DNA of 15,149 nucleotides from the NCBI GenBank assembly GCA_039714335.1, contig JBDLJN010000064.1:1-15149 (forward strand), given 5' to 3'. This document shows positions 12 through 14,876 of the stretch, one piece after another. The stretch comes from Planctomycetota bacterium. Lineage in GTDB: Bacteria; Planctomycetota; Phycisphaerae; Sedimentisphaerales; Anaerohalosphaeraceae. A model generated the notes under the pieces. The model saw only the letters and a list, made by a program, of their open reading frames with translations, did no database searches and was not told where the DNA came from. Numbering within the stretch: the stretch's first letter is position 1; every line of letters starts with the position of its first letter. Position numbers and translations under genes: made by a program.

Positions 12-518
12 ATGCCGCCAGAATCGTGTGAGATTGCGATCATCGCAACCGGCCCCAACCCCACGGACATTCTCAGCAAACACGGTAAATTCATTAAGAA
101 TAAAATCAGTGAGGGTATTCAACAACAACCGGATATTTCTGACTCTATACCGTATCCCAAGACGATGTTATTTGATCGTACAGTCTATGAAGTCTCGGGC
201 CCTTTGTTTGATTGGTATCAGGAAATGAGTTTCAGCAAAGCAGGGGGCGGTAGAGGAGACTTGTTTTATAGAGAACATATATGTGCTACTGCATCGGGTA
301 TTCGCTTTACATTTAAAATGTGGCTGCTTAACACGAACAAAACCAAGTTACAAATTGATATCCAGAATTACGAGGGCAAAGAAGAATTCCCAATGATCCT
401 TAAGAGTTTGGAGGAAGTACTGGATGGAATCGGGCAATCTCAGCCGGAGCCGGTTTCTCAAGAGACAGCAAAGCCCAAGCGGGCGGTCGTTCCGAAAAAA
501 TCCTGCCAAGGGGAATAA
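12..518 (+). CDS. Hypothetical protein, possibly 5'-partial
   Basis: A 168-aa ORF ends at TAA 516-518. The frame stays open back to nt 3, so the gene may start outside the window. I recognise no family motif. It is AT-rich compared with the neighbouring hflX. Confidence 0.45.
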   Translation: MPPESCEIAIIATGPNPTDILSKHGKFIKNKISEGIQQQPDISDSIPYPKTMLFDRTVYEVSGPLFDWYQEMSFSKAGGGRGDLFYREHICATASGIRFTFKMWLLNTNKTKLQIDIQNYEGKEEFPMILKSLEEVLDGIGQSQPEPVSQETAKPKRAVVPKKSCQGE

Positions 519-3932: not shown

Positions 3933-4481
3933 ATGCATGTGCAAACGCATCTACTTTCCGGATGGTGTTTAGGCAATTTGTTTGGGTTGGGCAAACGAGG
4001 CAGATCGCTTGCTGTTCTTGCGGCGGGATTGCCTGATATCGATGGTTTAGGTATTATCTTTGGGCCGGTTGCTTACTGGCGGTATCACCATGTAATTTGT
4101 CACAATTTATTGTTTGGCATCTTTCTCTGTACAATACTGACTTTTTTCAGCGAACAGAAAAAACGGGCATTTACAGCATTTTTTGTTATCTTCCACCTGC
4201 ATCTTGTGATGGATTCGTTCGGTTCGGGTGAGGACTGGGTGATCTATTACTTGTGGCCATTTATAAAACAGCCCGTTGAAAATCCTTACGTCTGGTCATT
4301 TTTCTCATGGCAGAATATTACCACGGCGATTATATTTGTTCTTTGGATGATTGGATTGGTGTTTTACGCCAAGCGTACCTTTCTGGAGTGGGTCATGCCA
4401 AAACTGGATCGACAGATCGTGGAGTTGGCGGAAATATTGAAACGCAAATTCAGGGAAATACTAAGTACAATCAAGCAGTAA
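3933..4481 (+). CDS. Membrane-bound metal-dependent hydrolase, YdjM/DUF457-like
   Basis: The 182-aa polytopic protein has an N-terminal H.QTHLL.G motif, a PDIDG motif and conserved His residues (HH, H.H) typical of the YdjM family. GGAG lies about 9 nt upstream of the ATG. Confidence 0.6.
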   Translation: MHVQTHLLSGWCLGNLFGLGKRGRSLAVLAAGLPDIDGLGIIFGPVAYWRYHHVICHNLLFGIFLCTILTFFSEQKKRAFTAFFVIFHLHLVMDSFGSGEDWVIYYLWPFIKQPVENPYVWSFFSWQNITTAIIFVLWMIGLVFYAKRTFLEWVMPKLDRQIVELAEILKRKFREILSTIKQ

Positions 4482-4511
4482 GGTTAATTTTTGGATTTTA
4501 TATTGCGGGTA

Positions 4512-4539
4512 TTTGTGGTACGATTATCGACAGTATAAT
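4512..4539 (+). promoter_or_regulatory. Weak candidate promoter for the lipid module
   Basis: There is a perfect TATAAT at 4534-4539. The -35 is poor: TTTGTG at 4512-4517 with a 16-nt spacer. Confidence 0.25.
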
Positions 4540-4587
4540 GCTATTATGATTGTCCATTCCAGAAAATCTAATTGAAAGGAATGTTCT

Positions 4588-5247
4588 TTGAATGAAGAAA
4601 TAACAGATCGCAGGCCTCTTAAGACTCGCAGTGCCAAGTGGGCATCGATACTGGCTTTAAGGTTGGTCAAGCTGGGGGTCAAGCCGAATTTCATTTCACT
4701 GTTGAGTATTGTATTCGCGTTATTATCTGGACTCAGCTTTGGATTATCTGCTCTCTCTGACTCATGGAAGAAGAGTGTTTTCCTTATTCTTGGAGCAGCT
4801 TTTATACAATTGCGTCTTTTATGTAACATGCTTGATGGAATGGTTGCTATTGAAGGAGGTATGAAATCTAAAACCGGTGAAATTTATAACGATTTCCCAG
4901 ACCGTATTGCAGATATGGTTATTCTAATCGGATTCGGTTATGCAGCGAATGAATTAAATTTTGCCGTGGAACTTGGCTGGTTGGCTGCGATACTTTCGGT
5001 ATTAACCGCTTATGTAAGATACTTAGGCACTGCGACAGGAGCCGGAAGTTTTTTTTACGGCCCAATGGCAAAACAGCATCGCATGGCTGTGGCAACGATA
5101 ACATCGCTGCTACAGGGAATTCTCTATTTTTGGCAAGAGTCGCTATGTGTATTGTATGCAGGATTGGTTATTATTGTATTGGGATGTCTTGTGACAGTTT
5201 TGAGACGGATTGTTAAGATCGTCCGTGTTTTGGAGAGGATGCCATAG
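4588..5247 (+). CDS. CDP-alcohol phosphatidyltransferase family protein (small, YnbA-like)
   Basis: The 219-aa polytopic protein contains NMLDGMVAIEGGMKSKTGEIYNDFPDRIAD. This is a recognisable variant of the D-G-x2-A-R...G-x3-D-x3-D motif, with Ile in place of the Arg. The start is TTG, with AAAGGA 8 nt upstream. Confidence 0.8.
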   Translation: MNEEITDRRPLKTRSAKWASILALRLVKLGVKPNFISLLSIVFALLSGLSFGLSALSDSWKKSVFLILGAAFIQLRLLCNMLDGMVAIEGGMKSKTGEIYNDFPDRIADMVILIGFGYAANELNFAVELGWLAAILSVLTAYVRYLGTATGAGSFFYGPMAKQHRMAVATITSLLQGILYFWQESLCVLYAGLVIIVLGCLVTVLRRIVKIVRVLERMP

Positions 5248-5876
5248 TGGCCGGACTTATTGCGAAAATTATATTATATTTTTGTCGTTTAATTTCCGGT
5301 GTCCAAGTGGAAATAAAGGATGCAGAATTAATTAATGGCACATTAATATTTTATGGCAATCACAGCAGTCACTTGGACTCAATGGTTATTCTTTCACTTT
5401 TGCCGAAAGAGCTAAGAGAAAAAACATTTATTGTTGGCTCTAAAAAATACTGGCAAGCTAATGCGGTACGCAGGTATGTTTCAAATCGGGTGTTTAAAAC
5501 GATGCTGATTGATCGCTCAGGCGAAGGAAATGAAGCAGGAGCATTTGCAGCGATATCCAATATGTCGAATATATTGTCGGAAGGTAATTGTATTATCATT
5601 TTCCCAGAAGGTACACGTAGCTTGGATGAGGGGGTTTCTAATTTTAAGGGGGGGATATATCATCTGGCGAAAAAAAACAACGATGTTAAGCTTGTTCCAA
5701 TCTTTTTAGAGAACATGAATAGAATCATGCCAAAGGGCGAATTGATTGTTATTCCACTATTGGGACGGGCAGTGTTTGGTAATCCAATAAAGTTGACCGA
5801 AGATGAGGGCAAAGAGGAATTTTTAATCCGGGCAAGAAATGAACTTGCTGCTTTAGGGAGAAACGATCTTGGATAA
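5247..5876 (+). CDS. 1-acyl-sn-glycerol-3-phosphate (lysophospholipid) acyltransferase, PlsC family
   Basis: The 209-aa protein has the HX4D box GNHSSHLD and the FPEGTRS box. Its GTG start overlaps the upstream TAG by 1 nt (TAGTG). GGAGAGGA lies 7 nt upstream. Confidence 0.85.
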   Translation: MAGLIAKIILYFCRLISGVQVEIKDAELINGTLIFYGNHSSHLDSMVILSLLPKELREKTFIVGSKKYWQANAVRRYVSNRVFKTMLIDRSGEGNEAGAFAAISNMSNILSEGNCIIIFPEGTRSLDEGVSNFKGGIYHLAKKNNDVKLVPIFLENMNRIMPKGELIVIPLLGRAVFGNPIKLTEDEGKEEFLIRARNELAALGRNDLG

Positions 5877-6807
5877 CGAAATAAAATATTTATTCGGCGG
5901 TATTTTGTCACTTCTTACTATTGCTTCAGTGATAGGTTTTTTGTTGGCGAGAAAATATAAAGATTCGTCTGCAAAACATGTTATCGATAATCTTAACGCA
6001 CGGACAAAAGCATGGTGGCAGATGTGTGCAGTGTTTGCGGTGTCCTTATTAATTGGCAAGACTGGCTCGGTCATACTTTTTTGCATTATGAGCTTTTTGG
6101 CACTGCGGGAGTTTATAACTCTGACGCCAACAAAAAAAGGAGACCACAAGACGCTGTTCTGGCTGTTTTTTGTAATCCTGCCTTATCAATATTACCTGGT
6201 CTATACAAAGTGGTACGGAATGTTTGCCATCATGATACCCGTATATGCGTTTTTGTTGATTCCTCTCCGCAGTGCTCTGGCAGGAGATACGAATAATTTT
6301 CTTGAGCGAACAGCAAAAATTCAATGGGGTGCTGTGGTTTGTGTCTATTGCGTGAGTCATGCACCCGCATTGCTGATTCTGGATATTCCAAATTATAGCG
6401 GAGAGAATGTAAAGTTGTTGCTCTTTTTGGCTATTATTGTTCAAATGAGTGATGTGTTGCAATATGTATTTGGCAAGACACTCGGTAAACATAAGGTTGT
6501 ACCGAATGTTAGTCCCAATAAAACATGGGAGGGGTTGATTGGTGGAGTGGTCTTTGCTTCACTGATCGGCATGGGGCTTTGGTGGAGTACGCCCTTTTCT
6601 CCATTAGCAGCATTAGCGATTTCTCTGGTGATAACGATGATGGGGTTTGCCGGTGGTTTGGTAATGTCTGCGATAAAGCGAGACCGTGGAATTAAAGATT
6701 TTGGTAATATCATACAGGGCCATGGTGGAATAATGGATAGGATTGATTCGTTATGTTTTTCTGCGCCTGTATTTTTCCACATAGTCAGGTATTATTATAC
6801 AGGATAA
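5869..6807 (+). CDS. cdsA: Phosphatidate cytidylyltransferase (CDP-diglyceride synthase family; possibly a YnbB-like paralog)
   Basis: The 312-aa polytopic protein has the CdsA signature SAIKRDRGIKDFGNIIQGHGGIMDRID and SPNKTWEG. Its TTG start overlaps the upstream gene by 8 nt. AGGGAG lies 8 nt upstream. Confidence 0.88.
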   Translation: MDNEIKYLFGGILSLLTIASVIGFLLARKYKDSSAKHVIDNLNARTKAWWQMCAVFAVSLLIGKTGSVILFCIMSFLALREFITLTPTKKGDHKTLFWLFFVILPYQYYLVYTKWYGMFAIMIPVYAFLLIPLRSALAGDTNNFLERTAKIQWGAVVCVYCVSHAPALLILDIPNYSGENVKLLLFLAIIVQMSDVLQYVFGKTLGKHKVVPNVSPNKTWEGLIGGVVFASLIGMGLWWSTPFSPLAALAISLVITMMGFAGGLVMSAIKRDRGIKDFGNIIQGHGGIMDRIDSLCFSAPVFFHIVRYYYTG

Positions 6808-7382: not shown

Positions 7383-8000
7383 TTAGAGTGCGGTCAGGCG
7401 CCAGACCACCGCGGCCAATATTGCCAATACAAAAAGCAGCAGGAAGCACAGTTTCGTCAGTATTGGCAGAACACGATCATCGCGCCGCTGATTGCTTTGA
7501 TATGTCTGCGCATTATTGGGTTCACTAGCTTTTCGGGCTGCGGCGGAATTGGGCGCGACGCATCCAATAGTCCTGTACATGCTGCGAATAAAATACAGCA
7601 CAAACAGCGCACCCATCCAGCCGGTCAGCCAGATGAAAAAGTATCCCGCGAAAGCCCCCGCGATGCCGCCTCCGCCGCAAAGACCGAAATAGGCCCAGCG
7701 AGGAAGACGCAGCCAGAAGTCTTCCTGGGCTGCAACCTCTTTTTCAGGAGCTTCTGGAATATGCTGCTGAACCTGGGTGAGCACCTCTTCGTCGGAGATG
7801 GGACTGGAGGGGCTGGCAGCAGTGGTTTTAAGTTTCAACAGCGCGGCCTGAGTTTCGCTGTACTCAGTCTGCTCGGAATATGTTTCCCGCGCACTGTCCG
7901 ATAAATGGACTACGGTGAACACCCCGAGGCAGGCCCCCAAAAGGGCTCCCAGCAGGGCTAACGCTTGAATAAATTCTTTGTCTTCATGTCGTATCGGCAT
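7383..8000 (-). CDS. Hypothetical membrane protein (about 4 TM)
   Basis: The 205-aa ORF starts at ATG 8000, preceded by a strong SD (GAGGTG at 8010-8005). Hydrophobic segments are ALALLGALLGACLGVFTVV, YFGLCGGGGIAGAFAGYFFIWLTGWMGALFVLYFI and LCFLLLFVLAILAAVVW. I recognise no family. Its stop is only 7 nt from the nitroreductase stop. Confidence 0.6.
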   Translation of the reverse strand: MPIRHEDKEFIQALALLGALLGACLGVFTVVHLSDSARETYSEQTEYSETQAALLKLKTTAASPSSPISDEEVLTQVQQHIPEAPEKEVAAQEDFWLRLPRWAYFGLCGGGGIAGAFAGYFFIWLTGWMGALFVLYFIRSMYRTIGCVAPNSAAARKASEPNNAQTYQSNQRRDDRVLPILTKLCFLLLFVLAILAAVVWRLTAL

Positions 8001-9631: not shown

Positions 9632-9661
9632 TTGAGTTTCTGGATGGAGATATTGTATAAT
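9632..9661 (+). promoter_or_regulatory. Candidate promoter for the HAP2-like gene
   Basis: TTGAGT (9632-9637), an 18-nt spacer, then TATAAT (9656-9661). This predicts a leader of about 90 nt. Confidence 0.4.
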
Positions 9662-9760
9662 TATTCAAGGGTTAGGGCTGAAAGCGACGATTATTAGAGG
9701 GCAAATAACACTTTTATTCAAATTGCAGAGCCGCCGGTGCGTCTGTGGTCAGGAGAGTCT

Positions 9761-11644
9761 ATGTATCAGAAGAAGAATTTGAAGGTCCAAGCCGTATGTT
9801 CCATGTTCATCGCTGCCGTTTTGTTCGGCGTCTGTCTGTCAACGGCGCAGGCAACCCGCGTCTCAACCGCTGTAATTGAGGACTGTCTGATCAATGAAAG
9901 CGGCTTTAATTGTGACGAGAAAACCTGTATTTCAGCCGATGTCTCCTATGGCATACAGACGCAACTCGAGGTCGTGCAGATAACGACCATTCAGGTTGGC
10001 GGTGAACCCGTAGAGGTTGAAGAAACAACAGAAATCGAGATTGAAAAATCGATTCCGACCCTGTATTATCCGCTGCGGTTTTTGCATACCGTCGCCTATT
10101 ATCCCCACGAAGAAGTCATCCGTACACCCCATCCGATCAGCGGCTGTGACTGCCAGTGTGCCGATCCGAACTTTCAGGGTTTTTGCAGTACCAGAAGTCC
10201 GTTTGACCTGGAGAATCTCTGTGCCTCGTGGCGGGGTGAGGAGTTGATCGGTCAGCCGGCCACAACGGCTGTACCGTATGCGACAGCACACTGCCTGCAT
10301 ATGGGAGAAGTGTATTTTCACGGTTATGAGATCTGTGGGCCGACGGAATATTACGAGATTGCCGCTAATTTGCAAAAGGGTAGTGACACACTTAATTTTG
10401 TCCTCAGCCCGGCCGATCCATTTTACGGTATTAATCAAGCCAGCGGCTTCAAAGTCAAGGCCGAGCTTTTGGGCAACCAGGAAAAGTACAAAGGCGTTCC
10501 GGAGTTGAGCAATTACATCCTCTATATCCCGGCGCTCCCTGAAGCACACCCCTATGTTCAGGACTATCAGAACAACATGCTGATTCTTCCTCGAGAAGAA
10601 CTGTCTAAAGACGGCTCTGAACCGGATAAGGTGGGCATCAGCTACGATGCGTTCCGCAAACTGGGCGGCAACGCCAGCGTCTCCGAAGCCGGTGACGGCC
10701 TGCATAACCAGCTTTTTCAAAAACACAGTGCCGATCTGCAGAAGTTGATTATGAACCCGGATGCTGAAACCGAATACCTGGTTCACGGCAAGCGGAAATT
10801 CAAAGAATCAATGGGTTTCCAGGCGGGGATGGCAAAAGTACTGCAGTACAAGGTCCCCGAGATCAACTATTCACAGGTGGCTTTGACCCTGCCGGATGTA
10901 ACGACCGTTAAAGTCATCAACACCGAATCGCTGGGGATTATCATGGATGCTGATGTCCAGGCGTTTACCTCCATGACGGACGAGGGAACATTAGTTGTCG
11001 AGATAGCGAATTGGGGTGATCTGAAAACCGATTATGTCGTGACGGTAACCCAAGCGAACATGAACATCATCAAGGCCATTCCCGCCCAGTCAAGAATCCT
11101 GGACTCATATGAACAAGCGACTCTGACCTTCGACATCCATACCGCGTACAATATTGATACGATCAACGAATGTGCTGTCCGGCTCAAGTCGCCTACCGGC
11201 CGCTTATATGATGAGGTTTCCGTCAAATTTGATGCCTCCAAACACCCCTCAAAGTACTCGGGGGATTTGCAGCTAACCAATGATGCCGCGACGCTGACCG
11301 AGCCCAACAACCTCACCGCTCCGGTGATCACCCTGAACGGGCCGGAGTTGATCCTGCTGGAGTGCAATGTTGATACCTATGTCGAACAGGGCGCTGAAGC
11401 TGTGGACGATGTGGACGGTACCGTTGCTGTGATTATTGGTGGTGACACCGTCGATACGACCGTGTGCGGTATCTATACCGTCAAGTACTTCGCGCGGGAT
11501 GCGGTGTTTAATTTCTCGGAGATCACACGCACGGTGAAGGTCGTTTGCCCGGGCTCCGGGATCGAAGGCGACATCAACAATGACAACATGGTGAACATGG
11601 ATGACCTTGGCAGACTCGCCGCCAACTGGCTCGTCGGAACCTAA
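9761..11644 (+). CDS. Secreted HAP2/GCS1-like (fusexin-like) protein with C-terminal Ig-like (DUF5011-type) domain and dockerin-like tail
   Basis: I prefer the ATG at 9761 (AGGAG 9751-9755) over the track's GTG at 9737. A Sec signal peptide is present: MYQKKNLKVQAVCSMFIAAVLFGVCLSTAQA. Roughly nt 9869-11236 is collinear with HAP2 ectodomain motif blocks (AHCL, LLG..YxxxP...YLxIP, KxGxSYxAF, LHNQL, domain III-like N.G strand). Nt 11315-11548 (PVITLNGPE...YTVKYFARD...) looks like a DUF5011/Ig-like domain. Nt 11564-11641 (GDINNDNMVNMDDLGRLAANW) looks like a dockerin-type repeat. There is no C-terminal TM segment. Confidence 0.7.
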   Translation: MYQKKNLKVQAVCSMFIAAVLFGVCLSTAQATRVSTAVIEDCLINESGFNCDEKTCISADVSYGIQTQLEVVQITTIQVGGEPVEVEETTEIEIEKSIPTLYYPLRFLHTVAYYPHEEVIRTPHPISGCDCQCADPNFQGFCSTRSPFDLENLCASWRGEELIGQPATTAVPYATAHCLHMGEVYFHGYEICGPTEYYEIAANLQKGSDTLNFVLSPADPFYGINQASGFKVKAELLGNQEKYKGVPELSNYILYIPALPEAHPYVQDYQNNMLILPREELSKDGSEPDKVGISYDAFRKLGGNASVSEAGDGLHNQLFQKHSADLQKLIMNPDAETEYLVHGKRKFKESMGFQAGMAKVLQYKVPEINYSQVALTLPDVTTVKVINTESLGIIMDADVQAFTSMTDEGTLVVEIANWGDLKTDYVVTVTQANMNIIKAIPAQSRILDSYEQATLTFDIHTAYNIDTINECAVRLKSPTGRLYDEVSVKFDASKHPSKYSGDLQLTNDAATLTEPNNLTAPVITLNGPELILLECNVDTYVEQGAEAVDDVDGTVAVIIGGDTVDTTVCGIYTVKYFARDAVFNFSEITRTVKVVCPGSGIEGDINNDNMVNMDDLGRLAANWLVGT

Positions 11645-11663
11645 AGAACAATGATATCACAGC

Positions 11664-11701
11664 GGCACGGCCAGGTTCCGCCTGACCGTGCCATTTTATT
11701 T
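11664..11701 (+). terminator. Rho-independent terminator of the HAP2-like gene
   Basis: GGCACGG-c-CAGG / ttccg / CCTG-a-CCGTGCC forms a 7+4 bp stem with one mismatch. It is followed by ATTTTATTT. Confidence 0.6.
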
Positions 11702-11770: not shown

Positions 11771-13345
11771 TTACAGCGAGACGCCGGTAAGCCAGTTTTC
11801 TGCAAGGACGGAAAGGTCCTGAATATCCACAAAACCATCCACCATTGTTTCGGGAGCCATGTCGGCATAAGGATTCCAGTTAATGGATTGACCATCAGAC
11901 ATCCATGCTTGGCTAAATGCCACAAAATCGATCAAATCCACTGTGAAGTCTCGAAGTTCCGGGGCGATGTCGCCTGGTACCGCGGGGCCGATATGTTGGA
12001 CTTGCAATGTAGGGCTTGCATAGTCCCCTTTTAAAACCATATTGTATTCATTAAAAAGATTCATCCCGATGATCCCGTCTAATGTGCCTCCTTCAGGAGA
12101 AGCTACATCTAACAGGATGACAGGGATATTTGTGTACTGGAGCCACTGCCCCAGAGCAGGAATGTCCAGAGAGTCAATATAGAACCCCGGTGCAACAGTG
12201 GTTTCGCCGGTGACGCCAATAATGTCAACTTCAAATTCAGGGTTTTCCGGATCAAATCCAAGCAGGGAACCTACATTTGAACCGACCACAGTAACCTGGG
12301 CGCCTGTATCCAGCATGAATCGATCCTGCTGTGTTGCTGAATAGCCATCGTCGTATAAAGAGACGCTGTTGACAAAAAATAAGCTTTGGGCGGAAGCTCC
12401 CATGATGATTGAGGGTGTGCCGGGTTGATAGATTAATTCGTTCATGAGCAACTCAAGATCTGGGATATACTGAATATCGCTTGAGCCCAGCGGGATTAGA
12501 TTCAACGGAATTTCAATCGAATAATCGGGAATCTGGGGATCGCCCGGTTCATAAAAATCAACGCATGGTCCGGTGTAAGTTTCGCCGGCATATTTACACC
12601 ACAGTTTCCGGTCATTTGAAATCACTGTTGTCAAATTAACTGTCATTGGGGCGCCGATGGCATTCGGCAGATCGGGAGCATTGGGTTCCGGCATGTCCCC
12701 CACGGAAACGGAAACATTGCCGAGTCCTACCATATTGGATACATCCAGCACCCAGTCATTAGGATCATTGAGACTGTTAGGATCAAGTGCTTGCAGACCG
12801 TCAATAAATAATCCCAGCGGCTGACTGACCCAGGTAAAAACAGAACCGCTGACGCCCTGAATTTCCGTTACGGCCTGCGTCAGTGTTTCGTCGGAGTGTG
12901 CGTAGATCCCGGTAATGTTGCTGGCCTGATAACTAAGCACGGTCGCGCTGGCACCAGTATCGAGAAGACCAACGGCATAATTGCTCAAAGGGCTGGATGT
13001 GTAGTAGTCTCCGACGACAGACAAATGAGGTACGGCGGAGGGTTCAAACTCCCCGTTGCGATCATCGGTTACAGTAAAGATTATCCACGGCACGAAGCCG
13101 TCCACCGGGGGTGAGTCGATGACATTGGAATAAACCGGTTCTGCGGCTTCTGCTTGTGCGGCGAGTTCCTGCGGTGCCGGTTGCGGCGTGTCTTTCTCGA
13201 AATAGCGGATTTCCTTGATCTTCGACCCGGACGGTCCTTGCCAGTTGACGGTTTCGGCCCAGCCCCAGGCCTGCAGTCCCGCCGCCAGCAGTACCCCCGT
13301 GTGAAGCATTAAAAACGCATGACCAAATCTTTTATGGTATTTCAT
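11771..13345 (-). CDS. Secreted bilobal (pseudo-dimeric retropepsin/pepsin-like) aspartic protease with dockerin-like C-terminal repeats
   Basis: I prefer the ATG at 13345 (MKYHKRFGHAFLMLHTGVLLAAGLQAWG signal-like N-terminus, AAGGA upstream) over the track's TTG at 13396. There are two catalytic-type motifs: LLDTGASATVL (D at 12961-12959) and FMLDTGAQVTVVG (D at 12310-12308). LDGIIGMNLF occurs in the second lobe. The C-terminus (11774-11971) carries DFTVDLIDFVAFSQAW and DGFVDIQDLSVLAENW repeats. Confidence 0.7.
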   Translation of the reverse strand: MKYHKRFGHAFLMLHTGVLLAAGLQAWGWAETVNWQGPSGSKIKEIRYFEKDTPQPAPQELAAQAEAAEPVYSNVIDSPPVDGFVPWIIFTVTDDRNGEFEPSAVPHLSVVGDYYTSSPLSNYAVGLLDTGASATVLSYQASNITGIYAHSDETLTQAVTEIQGVSGSVFTWVSQPLGLFIDGLQALDPNSLNDPNDWVLDVSNMVGLGNVSVSVGDMPEPNAPDLPNAIGAPMTVNLTTVISNDRKLWCKYAGETYTGPCVDFYEPGDPQIPDYSIEIPLNLIPLGSSDIQYIPDLELLMNELIYQPGTPSIIMGASAQSLFFVNSVSLYDDGYSATQQDRFMLDTGAQVTVVGSNVGSLLGFDPENPEFEVDIIGVTGETTVAPGFYIDSLDIPALGQWLQYTNIPVILLDVASPEGGTLDGIIGMNLFNEYNMVLKGDYASPTLQVQHIGPAVPGDIAPELRDFTVDLIDFVAFSQAWMSDGQSINWNPYADMAPETMVDGFVDIQDLSVLAENWLTGVSL

Positions 13346-13447
13346 CGTCCTATCCTTTTCCGGAAGAATAAAGATACATGTTCTTGTTTCGGCCAAATCA
13401 AGCCCCCATAGAATCGACAGATGCTAAAAACCATCAGGTCATCCATA

Positions 13448-13476: not shown

Positions 13477-13784
13477 GCATGCGATGGACTAAACCGTAAA
13501 AATGTCCGATAAATGCTTGTATTTCTTCGTTAAACGCAGTTGTACAACGAAAAAAGTGCCGACTGCTGCTTCAGACGCAGGTTATATGTTGAAAATCCAA
13601 ATCCGGCCGAATTTTCATTAACCAGTCCCTTTTCTGTGTCGATATTCAAAGCAGAAATGGATTTGTACCCTTCAGGGTAATAAATTCCCGCGAGTAAAGC
13701 GGCAACTGCTTGCCCCATAGGTATATAGCCGCGGGAAAACGGGGATTTTAAACTGTGAGCACTATGAGACTCAGGAGATAAATT

Positions 13785-14120
13785 ATGGGTATTCAAAACT
13801 GGTCGGAAAATGTCGTTCTTGTGAATCTGGCAAAAGAGCCGGATATGGGCGAGGAACTGCAGACAGTTATCGACATGATTGCCGAGGACGCGGAACAGAA
13901 TGTGGTGGTTGATTTTGCGGATGTGGATATTGTAACCTCTTCGAGCATTGCCAAGCTGTTGAAACTTCGCAAAGTTCTGCATGATAACAGCAGGACGTTT
14001 CTGTTTTCTTCGGTCAGCCCCAAAACAAGGTCGATTTTTAATGTAACCGGTCTTGACAGTGTGTTCGAATTCATCGATGACCAGTTTATCGCTTTGGCGT
14101 CGCTGCAATTGGTTAACTAG
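13785..14120 (+). CDS. STAS-domain anti-sigma-factor antagonist (SpoIIAA/RsbV-like)
   Basis: The 111-aa protein has the pattern VVLVNL...VVVDFADVDIVTSSSIAKLLKLRK...FLFSSVSPKTRSIFNVTGLDSVFEF, which matches the STAS fold. Candidate phospho-Ser residues sit in TSSSI. AGGAG lies 7 nt upstream of the ATG. Confidence 0.85.
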   Translation: MGIQNWSENVVLVNLAKEPDMGEELQTVIDMIAEDAEQNVVVDFADVDIVTSSSIAKLLKLRKVLHDNSRTFLFSSVSPKTRSIFNVTGLDSVFEFIDDQFIALASLQLVN

Positions 14121-14151
14121 TCGCTGGCGAATACAAAATTGAATTTAACGG

Positions 14152-14185
14152 GACAGACTGCCTCTTGACAGTCTGTCTTTTTTTT
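14152..14185 (+). terminator. Rho-independent terminator after the STAS gene
   Basis: GACAGACTG (14152-14160) pairs with CAGTCTGTC (14169-14177), giving a 9-bp stem with an 8-nt loop. It is followed by T8 (14178-14185). Confidence 0.75.
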
Positions 14186-14193
14186 GTTACAAT
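14165..14193 (+). promoter_or_regulatory. Candidate consensus-like promoter for rnc, embedded in the preceding terminator
   Basis: TTGACA (14165-14170), a 17-nt spacer, then TACAAT (14188-14193). The -35 lies in the terminator loop and 3' arm, and the spacer contains the T-tract. Confidence 0.5.
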
Positions 14194-14288
14194 GAAAAAT
14201 AAGATGCAGTCAATGCAAGCGCGTTTCGAATATCACTTAAGGGAGCGGTTTTCGCAATCTGCTTGCACGATGAAAATCAGGAGATTTT

Positions 14289-14876
14289 ATGAACGCGGAT
14301 ACTGTGCAGCAGATTCAGAGCATACTGGACTATCAGTTTAAAGATCCTCAACTTCTTCATGAAGCATTTCTACATTCCTCTGCAGCCGATGATCGCCGGC
14401 GCAGCAATGAGCGGTTGGAGTTTCTTGGCGACTCGGTCCTGTCGCTGGTGATCTGCGATACGCTGTTCCAACGTTTTCCGGGTTATCTGGAGGGAGACCT
14501 GACAAAGATCAAAAGCCGCCTGGTTTCGCGGAAAAGCTGTGCGGATATCGCGAACAAACTGGAACTGCCGAATTATATGCAGGTTGGAAAAGGCATGGAG
14601 CGTTCGCGGGCGATGAATGGTTCGGTGGCGGCGGCCAGTCTGGAGTCCGTCATCGCCGCGATCTTTCTGGACGGCGGTATGGATGCTGCCGCGGCGTTCA
14701 TCCGTCGGATTTTTGAGCCGATGATCGTCAAGGCGGATGCCGAACAACATCAGGAGAACTTCAAATCTCTCCTGCAGCAGCACTGCCAGCGACAGCACAA
14801 TTGTACCCCCTATTACGAACTGCTGGACGAAAAGGGGCCCGATCATAATAAATGTTTTGAGGTGGCCGTGGTGCTT
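14289..14876 (+). CDS. rnc: Ribonuclease III (catalytic domain plus the first part of the dsRBD; homology stops abruptly)
   Basis: This ORF is not in the supplied track because it never reaches a stop before 15149. The ATG is at 14289, with AGGAG at 14279-14283. The translation is MNADTVQQIQSILDYQFKDPQLLHEAFLHSS...NERLEFLGDSVL (RNase III signature)...SLESVIAAIFLDGG...NFKSLLQQHCQ...YYELLDEKGPDHNKCFEVAVVL. The expected end of the dsRBD (G.G.SKK.AEQ.AA) is missing. Confidence 0.85.

Follow-up and report, generated by a model that had tools for sequence, protein, structure and literature searches.

HAP2/GCS1 is the ancestral gamete fusogen of eukaryotes. Where it came from, the 'virus or egg' question, is still open, and archaeal Fsx1 reportedly broadened that question in 2022. 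The locus described here lies on contig JBDLJN010000064.1 of a Planctomycetota bacterium (Sedimentisphaerales, Anaerohalosphaeraceae; assembly GCA_039714335.1), of which a stretch of 15,149 nucleotides, referred to below as the window, was analysed. An earlier note made from the letters of this stretch had proposed that the open reading frame (ORF) at 9761–11644 on the forward strand encodes a HAP2/GCS1-like protein in a bacterial setting. The product is almost certainly a genuine homologue of eukaryotic HAP2/GCS1, with a class II fusexin ectodomain comprising domains I–III, and the gene is stably resident in a Planctomycetota (Phycisphaerae-type) chromosome. On balance, it is judged probable that a HAP2 ectodomain, exchanged horizontally, now serves as a surface module that is secreted, inserts into membranes and is probably a trimer.

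When searched against Pfam, the 627-amino acid (aa) product matched PF10699 (HAP2-GCS1) with E=3e-49 and 168.4 bits (cutoff 27.4), residues 50–496 covering positions 3–471 of the 515 in the profile. These residues, encoded at 9908–11248 (+), were assigned as the HAP2-GCS1 ectodomain with class II domains I, II and III by Pfam, AlphaFold2 (AF2) and Foldseek; NCBIfam returned no model for the protein. A phmmer search against PDB sequences retrieved HAP2 ectodomains from Trypanosoma cruzi (5ow4, 3e-16), Arabidopsis thaliana (5ow3, 1.4e-11), Chlamydomonas reinhardtii (5mf1, 1.4e-10) and Cyanidioschyzon (8e-5), the only other match being at chance level (E=0.88). The six Arabidopsis motif pairs given in the earlier note were all aligned to the real 5ow3 sequence in this output, collinearly and with strings that proved essentially correct. 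A profile built from 20 bacterial relatives gave far stronger matches to the same proteins (T. cruzi, 1.4e-50; C. reinhardtii, 5e-44; A. thaliana, 4.5e-35; Cyanidioschyzon merolae, 2e-33), and six distinct HAP2 chain sequences were its only significant matches in PDB.

The AF2 model of the window protein, which was built on 60 family sequences, has a mean predicted local distance difference test (pLDDT) value of 87.3 and a predicted template modelling score (pTM) of 0.74, with most of the ectodomain region at pLDDT 90–97 and the signal peptide as a low-pLDDT helix. The predicted structure has the three-domain class II fold, with a beta-sandwich domain I, an elongated domain II bearing tip loops and an Ig-like domain III. 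HAP2 structures 5MF1, 6DBS and 6E18 (Chlamydomonas), 5OW3 (Arabidopsis), 5OW4 (T. cruzi) and 7S0K (Cyanidioschyzon) were used for comparison. The top Foldseek matches were Chlamydomonas and Arabidopsis HAP2 (E 2.8e-36 to 6e-30, target-normalised TM-score (TMt) 0.74–0.81, ~21% identity), with E=2.8e-36 for 6dbs and TMt values of 0.80 and 0.77 for 5mf1 and 5ow3, respectively. The TMt to pre-fusion Cyanidioschyzon HAP2 was lower, at 0.48, so the model is in a hairpin, post-fusion-like shape. The structural comparison that had been suggested thus placed HAP2 ahead of Fsx1, the viral class II proteins and EFF-1.

Across these comparisons, the window protein resembles eukaryotic HAP2 in its collinear homology over the whole ectodomain (~20–30% identity), its predicted fold (TMt 0.76–0.81 to post-fusion protomers), an Arg-Glu-Gln triad, the length and aromatic content of the domain II tip, and an N-terminal signal peptide. 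It differs from eukaryotic HAP2 in having no transmembrane helix or polybasic tail, in its fewer cysteines, in its C-terminal Ig-like domain and half-dockerin-like tag, and in being the product of an intron-less bacterial gene with a Shine-Dalgarno sequence and a terminator; some of its relatives also have no tip or no domain III. Archaeal Fsx1 (7P4L) is likewise a prokaryote-encoded protein with a class II fusexin fold and was matched with E=1e-17 and a Foldseek probability of 1.0, but with only 13–14% identity and a TMt of ~0.5, and the family profile did not detect it (E above 10). Bunyaviral Gc, alphavirus E1, flavivirus E, Atlas virus Env and EFF-1/AFF-1 share the three-domain beta-rich architecture (Foldseek 1e-11 to 1e-17), but at ~8–12% identity, with no match at the sequence level and with transmembrane anchors of their own. 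A library of viral structures returned only remote class II glycoproteins for the model (1e-15, 10% identity). Viral class II proteins also require a companion protein and, in most cases, acidification as the trigger.

The homologue is real but not unique: its family comprises at least 92 protein clusters, most of them from MAGs (metagenome-assembled genomes) of Phycisphaerae/Sedimentisphaerales. A protein-database search returned 92 clusters at 39–75% identity, all carrying PF10699, and each of 60 relatives scanned individually matched this family (best 8e-82). Named members are proteins from MAGs of Planctomycetota, Phycisphaerae and Anaerohalosphaera, plus two of Thermodesulfobacteriota. 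Six loci were found among 185,579 GTDB species genomes, in MAGs of Planctomycetota (2), Sedimentisphaerales, Phycisphaerae, Anaerohalosphaeraceae and the Olavius-associated Delta1 symbiont; one Spirochaetales MAG also carries a member. A profile search of 1.84 billion representatives recovered 971 proteins with E<1e-3, 267 of them with E<1e-30; ~45 representatives (50% identity), mostly from one order, fall within the bacterial-type score range (above ~330 bits). Below this range, at 300–170 bits, are HAP2 proteins with transmembrane segments, the named ones coming from Naegleria, Balamuthia and Malawimonas. One further sequence was traced through its cluster to a MAG labelled 'archaeon'. Tandem HAP2-like paralogues, P0074 and P0067, were seen on a 31-kb Thermodesulfobacteriota MAG contig (L005, 8272–9897 and 10001–11866); P0067 has a MopE-type metal-binding tail, and an 862-aa TSP3-repeat protein is encoded just upstream of the pair.

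The equivalent of the HAP2 fusion loops, at the tip of domain II, was located by alignment to C. reinhardtii residues 170–204 and the T. cruzi loops. It spans residues 143–177 of the window protein (STRSPFDLENLCASWRGEELIGQPATTAVPYATAH; 10187–10291, +) and holds W157 and R158, the codons for WRGEE lying at 10229–10243. By aligned position, also with respect to the T. cruzi residues, R158 corresponds to Chlamydomonas R185, E117 to E126 and Q317 to Q379. In Chlamydomonas HAP2, R185 is essential: it is salt-bridged to E126, which is strictly conserved, and touches Q379 of the PF10699 signature, and these contacts organise the two membrane-interacting loops (PMC5332557). The mutations R185A/Q and F192A-W193A abolished or impaired both gamete fusion and liposome binding in Chlamydomonas, and the soluble monomeric HAP2 ectodomain inserts into liposomes while trimerising, with no acid trigger (PMC5332557). 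Across the bacterial family, the arginine is present in 71 of 71 members that retain the tip, the glutamate in 87 of 88 and the glutamine in 89 of 92. The residue before the arginine is aromatic in 70 of the 71 tip-retaining members, often with a second tryptophan preceding it, and aromatic tip residues are kept in ~77% of members overall. In terms of sequence content only, the tip of the window protein (35 aa, 8 hydrophobic and 3 aromatic residues including W157) is close to the medians of both the bacterial members (33, 8 and 3) and HAP2 proteins with a transmembrane segment (32, 7 and 2). The signature motifs QGFC, AHCL and NQL are retained in the window protein.

The anchor is a different matter. 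A hydropathy scan revealed no C-terminal transmembrane helix in the window protein or in any of the 92 relatives from the first search, in all of which the N-terminal signal is the sole hydrophobic segment (residues 7–25 in the window protein). The positively charged cytoplasmic C-terminal domain is also absent: the C-terminus consists of a Bacterial surface Ig-like domain (residues 523–594; 11327–11542, +; Pfam PF16403, E=2.3e-10) followed by an acidic amphipathic tag ending in ...GDINNDNMVNMDDLGRLAANWLVGT. HAP2 orthologues are single-pass proteins with a charged C-terminal tail that is required for function, and Arabidopsis HAP2 constructs with the transmembrane domain but without the basic tail are not functional (PMC2841615). 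The fusogen-like label of the earlier note therefore stands as far as homology and fold are concerned, but 'fusogen' itself is not justified by the data because the transmembrane anchor and basic cytoplasmic tail of HAP2 orthologues are missing.

A working fusogen could still be imagined if the C-terminal tag or Ig modules docked on a membrane-anchored partner and the fold-back of domain III then made the bacterial outer membrane, or vesicles, fuse or hemifuse with another cell. In most members the ectodomain is complete from domain I to domain III and a conserved stem after domain III (KH.SKYSWELQ.KNE) is retained, the tip triad and its aromatic residues are conserved, and the closest relatives, P0103 and P0110, carry a full transmembrane segment and basic tail; archaeal Fsx1, furthermore, fuses cells when expressed heterologously (PMC9259645). 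The scheme is nevertheless distinctly unlikely, given 92 bacterial-type members with no transmembrane segment, no conserved neighbouring partner, and the inactivity of the tail-less Arabidopsis constructs (PMC2841615). Moreover, the collagen-fused variants described below have the look of permanently assembled trimers, not of metastable monomers in a pre-fusion state, and the tip or domain III has been lost in some lineages. The same low expectation applies to the wider proposal that the anchorless Planctomycetota proteins drive hemifusion or fusion, that the anchored relatives P0103, P0110, P0115, P0122 and P0193 are prokaryotic or prokaryote-associated, and that HAP2 was exchanged with or derived from bacteria.

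In place of the anchor, the family carries a variable set of modules. Among 60 members scanned, Bact_surface_Ig-like domains were found in 15 and InlK_D3 in 8, with TSP3, cadherin, Big domains and MopE in a few. Many members end in a short tag of the form ...D.RDFA.LA..WL.G, which in the window protein (PGSGIEGDINNDNMVNMDDLGRLAANWLVGT; 11549–11641, +) reads in translation as an EF-hand-like loop and a W-L-x-G helix, half of a dockerin-like unit. The same kind of tail closes unrelated secreted proteins on these contigs, including the product of the gene at 11771–13396 in the window, and it looks like a general sorting or tethering tag. Dockerin_1 (PF00404) gave no match to the window tail at E up to 10; related tails reached E=0.05–0.09, below the cutoff, and two family members reached 1e-4, so that 'dockerin-like' is used as a descriptive label only. 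In these respects (Sec export, a Bact_surface_Ig-like domain, variable tails and a tag common to unrelated secreted proteins), the window protein is like the modular adhesins of Planctomycetota, among which, or elsewhere, we know of no described adhesin family with a HAP2 or class II fusogen ectodomain as its head module.

A further arrangement was noted in P0047, P0079 and P0082, which consist of a signal peptide, a TIG-like domain, ~50 collagen G-X-Y triplets and the HAP2 ectodomain, with the collagen running straight into the first HAP2 strand and no C-terminal module. The fusion of collagen to the N-terminus of HAP2 implies that three N-termini can meet in a parallel trimer, and that each of these proteins may form a parallel trimeric head on a collagen stalk.

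Neighbour-joining (NJ) trees with gamma-corrected distances were constructed from 173 near-full-length sequences, together with T. cruzi, Chlamydomonas and Arabidopsis HAP2 from PDB alignments, all aligned with the family hidden Markov model. In the unrooted tree, the 92 sequences with no transmembrane segment form a clan in 100 of 200 NJ bootstraps, and this clan plus the transmembrane-bearing P0122, P0193 and P0115 is recovered in 186 of 200. The phylogeny with eukaryotic HAP2 that had been proposed recovered the anchorless clan, but its attachment among the eukaryotes was not supported. A homologue search started from an alignment of transmembrane-type HAP2 proteins gave back its query alone.

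P0122 and P0193 are the nearest neighbours of the bacterial clan among HAP2 proteins of the transmembrane type. Their contigs (L015 and L016) are 7–10 kb long, gene-dense and intron-less, with MORN and RCC1/WD40 repeat proteins adjoining and start contexts that are mostly non-Shine-Dalgarno and A-rich, and they look more like those of a protist or giant virus than of a bacterium. On both contigs, HAP2-GCS1 paralogues with transmembrane segments occur in tandem, two to three per contig (L015, 5230–7464 and 7753–9570; L016, 2–916, 932–2884 and 4172–5944). P0110 (L017, 30–1664) and P0103 (L018, 3–1154) are gene fragments on contigs of 28–30% GC, with a GC content at third codon positions (GC3) of 12–17%; their identity to Planctomycetota-type members is 45–50% and 59–66%, respectively. 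Past the conserved stem, both run on through a juxtamembrane segment rich in Cys and a long hydrophobic region to a polybasic tail. In a tree of the C-terminal half they fell inside the bacterial clan, where internal support was weak. Two metagenome scans turned up no longer contigs with this type of gene, and a homologue search returned only the same two sequences.

The cysteines give a second view of the same history. Eukaryote-type sequences have 13 conserved cysteine columns in the family alignment, six of which are kept by at least 80% of the bacterial clan. The window protein has cysteines in 6 of the 13 columns and falls short of the cysteine signature of eukaryotic HAP2, which has 16. 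The pair in the ECNKIG and SCL.NQ motifs, replaced by P288 and G313 in the window protein, is kept together in ~27% of the clan and the domain III pair in ~46%, whereas a few bacterial members keep 12 of the 13 columns; most members have lost them in pairs. Paired loss is the pattern expected of genuine disulfide partners and suggests that the Cys-rich, eukaryote-like state was ancestral to the clan. Together with the grouping of transmembrane-bearing relatives with the bacterial clan, it suggests that the gene passed at least once between bacteria and an AT-rich eukaryote or virus and that loss of the transmembrane segment is the derived condition, and the identity of up to 66% between P0103 and bacterial members argues for a comparatively recent crossing.

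As the family profile is far closer to eukaryotic HAP2 and is blind to Fsx1, the balance of evidence favours horizontal exchange with HAP2 of the eukaryotic type over an old prokaryotic descent, and transfer from eukaryotes or their viruses into bacteria is considered likely. The opposite polarity, in which the stem lineage of eukaryotes received HAP2 from bacteria, where it had arisen, would make the window gene a relic of the source of the gamete fusogen and would accord with a clan that is diverse (down to ~40% identity), spread over several phyla, chromosomal and host-like in composition, and that forms a group of its own in the unrooted tree instead of lying inside a named eukaryotic group. 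It is very unlikely all the same: the distribution in bacteria is patchy and narrow (~45 representatives, 6 loci in 185,579 genomes) against near-universal occurrence in eukaryotes, the Cys-richest members and the relatives with a transmembrane segment and polybasic tail group with or inside the clan, and P0103 is up to 66% identical to bacterial members.

A further difference from Fsx1 concerns genomic setting. A domain IV and a six-helix bundle are present in Fsx1, which is encoded within integrated mobile elements (Moi et al. 2022, PMC9259645), whereas the bacterial HAP2 family appears to have neither feature and is found among housekeeping genes. Searches of IMG/VR, PLSDB plasmids and INPHARED phages returned no relative, and a phage, plasmid or mobile-element origin like that of Fsx1 was rejected because there was neither a match in these collections nor a mobile-element neighbour. 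On relatives' contigs, the HAP2-like genes adjoin RuvC/A/B upstream and RecO downstream (67.6-kb contig), MreB and MreC (60 kb), a sulfatase and GH20 (107 kb), N-methyl (type IV pilin-like) proteins (70 kb), FlgM (Spirochaetales contig), and DsbD and GatB (34%-GC contig). A search for bacterial orthologues and shared synteny, also proposed beforehand, yielded the 92 or more clusters but no conserved synteny.

In the window itself, the genes upstream are those of a bacterium and encode HflX, a HAMP-SpoIIE phosphatase, YdjM, a CDP-alcohol phosphatidyltransferase, a PlsC-type acyltransferase, CdsA, a nitroreductase and pyruvate kinase. The bacterial setting near pyk that the earlier note had described was borne out by these neighbours (hflX, cdsA, plsC and pyk) and by relatives in bacterial contigs of 31–107 kb. 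The gene has a GC content of 0.515, a GC3 of 0.62 and a codon usage that fall within the range of its neighbours, and contamination or very recent arrival is therefore ruled out. An artefact, in which chimeric assembly or wrong binning put a eukaryotic gene into a bacterial contig, might be suspected, as all members come from metagenomes or MAGs, but this explanation is practically negligible in view of the bacterial housekeeping genes that share a contig with the gene, both in the window and in independent assemblies from different studies (contigs of up to 107 kb), of the Shine-Dalgarno sequence, Sec signal, terminator, matching codon usage and bacterial-only accessory domains attached to the same ORF, and of the 92 independent clusters.

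The Shine-Dalgarno sequence, Sec signal and terminator, which had been claimed along with the absence of introns, could be located in the sequence. The coding sequence runs uninterrupted from ATG 9761 to TAA 11642–11644 (627 aa); an alternative start, GTG 9737, would add 8 codons (635 aa), but ATG 9761 is favoured by the spacing of the Shine-Dalgarno sequence AGGAG (9751–9755, +), read directly 5 nt before it. The protein is identical to a public sequence (P0001) named 'MAG: immunoglobulin-like domain-containing protein [Planctomycetota bacterium]', which at 627 aa in NCBI starts at the same ATG. A consensus scan gave a sigma-70-like promoter candidate, TTGAGT-18-TATAAT (9632–9661, +; 10 of 12 matches), ~100 nt upstream of the start codon, as a pattern match only, there being 5 such sites in the region and 2.7 expected. 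A putative Sec signal peptide (residues 1–31; 9761–9853, +) has a KK n-region, a hydrophobic core at residues 7–25 and an AQA|TR site, with cleavage after residue 31 (AQA|T) read from the sequence pattern and not with a prediction tool; this site and the family-wide pattern favour a segment that would be cleaved rather than act as a signal-anchor. A lipoprotein anchor was rejected on reading the sequence, as no canonical lipobox precedes C25. Starting 18 nt past the stop codon, a GC-rich hairpin (GCGGCACGGCCAGG-uuc-CGCCUGACCGUGCC, followed by AUUUUAUUU; 11662–11701, +) was recognised from sequence and RNA folding as an intrinsic terminator, the hairpin plus ATTTTATTT lying at about 11662–11701. 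The consensus terminator scan did not list it, because of a bulge in the stem.

Taken together, these data suggest the following course of events. A HAP2 ectodomain would have been acquired by horizontal exchange with a eukaryote-type or eukaryotic-virus HAP2, after which the transmembrane helix and basic tail would have been lost and the disulfides lost stepwise, while bacterial modules were gained: a Sec signal, Ig-like domains and a half-dockerin-like tag, with collagen or TSP3 repeats in some members. The protein would be exported by Sec, tethered or released at the cell surface, and assembled as a parallel trimer; the variants headed by collagen are consistent with a stalked trimer that is constitutive. 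Such a trimer could insert its aromatic domain II tip, with W157 beside R158, into a foreign bilayer, much as the soluble HAP2 ectodomain does in liposomes. This step is proposed because the triad and the aromatic tip are conserved and because the soluble ectodomain inserts and trimerises alone; as a mechanism, it is put at slightly below an even chance. Lacking an anchor of its own, the protein would serve as an adhesin that grabs membranes, and could at most bring about hemifusion, since complete class II fusion needs an anchor in the second membrane, and its target might be the membrane of prey, a host or a vesicle. The role of a complete cell–cell fusogen is not proposed for the anchorless protein.

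Several observations weigh against this account. The tip is deleted in 21 of 92 relatives (e.g. SQGFCGG-GVAHC), and in P0111 and P0116 domains I and II are kept with domain III replaced by unrelated modules; the window protein itself has no counterpart of a segment of ~15–20 residues (consensus PTCGWTY..G...IE) that its relatives keep before QGFC. Such losses suggest that function has been relaxed or has changed in some branches of the family. No neighbour (chaperone or companion, cohesin, protease) recurs across the loci examined, and surface tethering by the half-dockerin-like tag, for which there is no significant Pfam match, is a conjecture. As for origin, the NJ backbone among the remaining eukaryote-type sequences has ~0% support, so that the direction of transfer is not readable from the tree, and none of the bacterial members comes from a record labelled as an isolate, all being from metagenomes or MAGs. 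The P0111/P0116 sub-family, in which HAP2 profile positions 19–397 are kept, was seen at L013 (44–1459, P0111), where the gene adjoins DsbD, EamA and GatB genes in a 34%-GC bacterial contig.

The losses also lend themselves to another explanation, namely that the HAP2 fold was co-opted as a rigid scaffold or as a protein- or glycan-binding adhesin that inserts into no membrane, making it simply another beta-rich module among those of the large Phycisphaerae surface proteins. The combination with Ig-like, cadherin, TSP3, collagen, MopE and dockerin-like modules would suit such a role, as would deletion of the tip in 23% of members, replacement of domain III in some, the stepwise loss of disulfides and the glycan-degrading neighbours at some loci. 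Those glycan-related neighbours are not conserved between loci, however, and the near-invariance of R158, E117 and Q317, with an aromatic residue at position 157 in 70 of 71 members, is hard to explain in a mere spacer. This explanation is for these reasons considered unlikely. Under the membrane-inserting account, the lineages with no tip or no domain III are parts of the family that moved to other uses.

The remaining genes of the window were also inspected. Composition shifts sharply inside it: the block at 3933–6807 (ydjM, CDP-alcohol transferase, plsC and cdsA) has 38–43% GC and a GC3 of 35–48%, whereas hflX, pyk, the nitroreductase gene and orf158 have 53–58% GC and a GC3 of 63–75%. Convergent with and downstream of the HAP2-like gene, the gene at 11771–13396 (−) encodes a 541-aa secreted protein with a retropepsin-like aspartyl-protease domain at residues 359–446 and a weak second RVP-like match at residues 140–158; from this arrangement, the product may be a single-chain pseudo-dimeric retropepsin. 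It ends in ...DGFVDIQDLSVLAENWLTG, the same kind of half-dockerin-like tag as that of the HAP2-like protein, and this protease-like neighbour is not kept beside the HAP2 genes at the other loci examined. No Pfam family was found for several window ORFs, at 7383–8000 (−), 12–518 (+) and 13530–14846 (−), the first of which (205 aa) resembles an anti-sigma factor model of NCBIfam only weakly, at E=0.0011 and well short of the cutoff.

The earlier note had stated that no bacterial member was described, and this agrees with the literature searched, though one sequence has already been named 'HAP2/GCS1 family protein [Phycisphaerae bacterium]' automatically by the NCBI pipeline. No description of a bacterial HAP2 was found in full-text literature searches, whose coverage left out most subscription journals. 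Moi et al. list a few Fsx1 genes, with caution, in MAGs labelled Thermotogae, Fermentibacteria and Desulfofervidus, none of them Planctomycetota (PMC9259645). A Nature Communications paper of August 2026 gives viral, archaeal and nematode relatives of HAP2 only, and the reviews and primary papers up to that month are confined to eukaryotic, viral, nematode and archaeal relatives. The novelty is thus in recognising and characterising the family, as the sequences were already public.

A bacterial family nearer to HAP2 than Fsx1 is adds a third cellular domain to the picture. It indicates that the HAP2 ectodomain has crossed the boundary between bacteria and eukaryotes and can persist without a membrane anchor, which is of high interest for the fields of cell fusion and eukaryogenesis. 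The family also supplies dozens of small, intron-less, low-disulfide variants that should be easier to express, and its anchorless members could be used to dissect what a class II ectodomain does by way of membrane insertion, trimerisation and trigger. Were functional HAP2-type fusexins present among these proteins, cell fusion machinery would exist in the bacterial domain. If membrane binding or fusion proves true, Phycisphaerae of sediments may have borrowed a gamete fusogen and turned it on eukaryotic cells or vesicles, or employ it in association with them.

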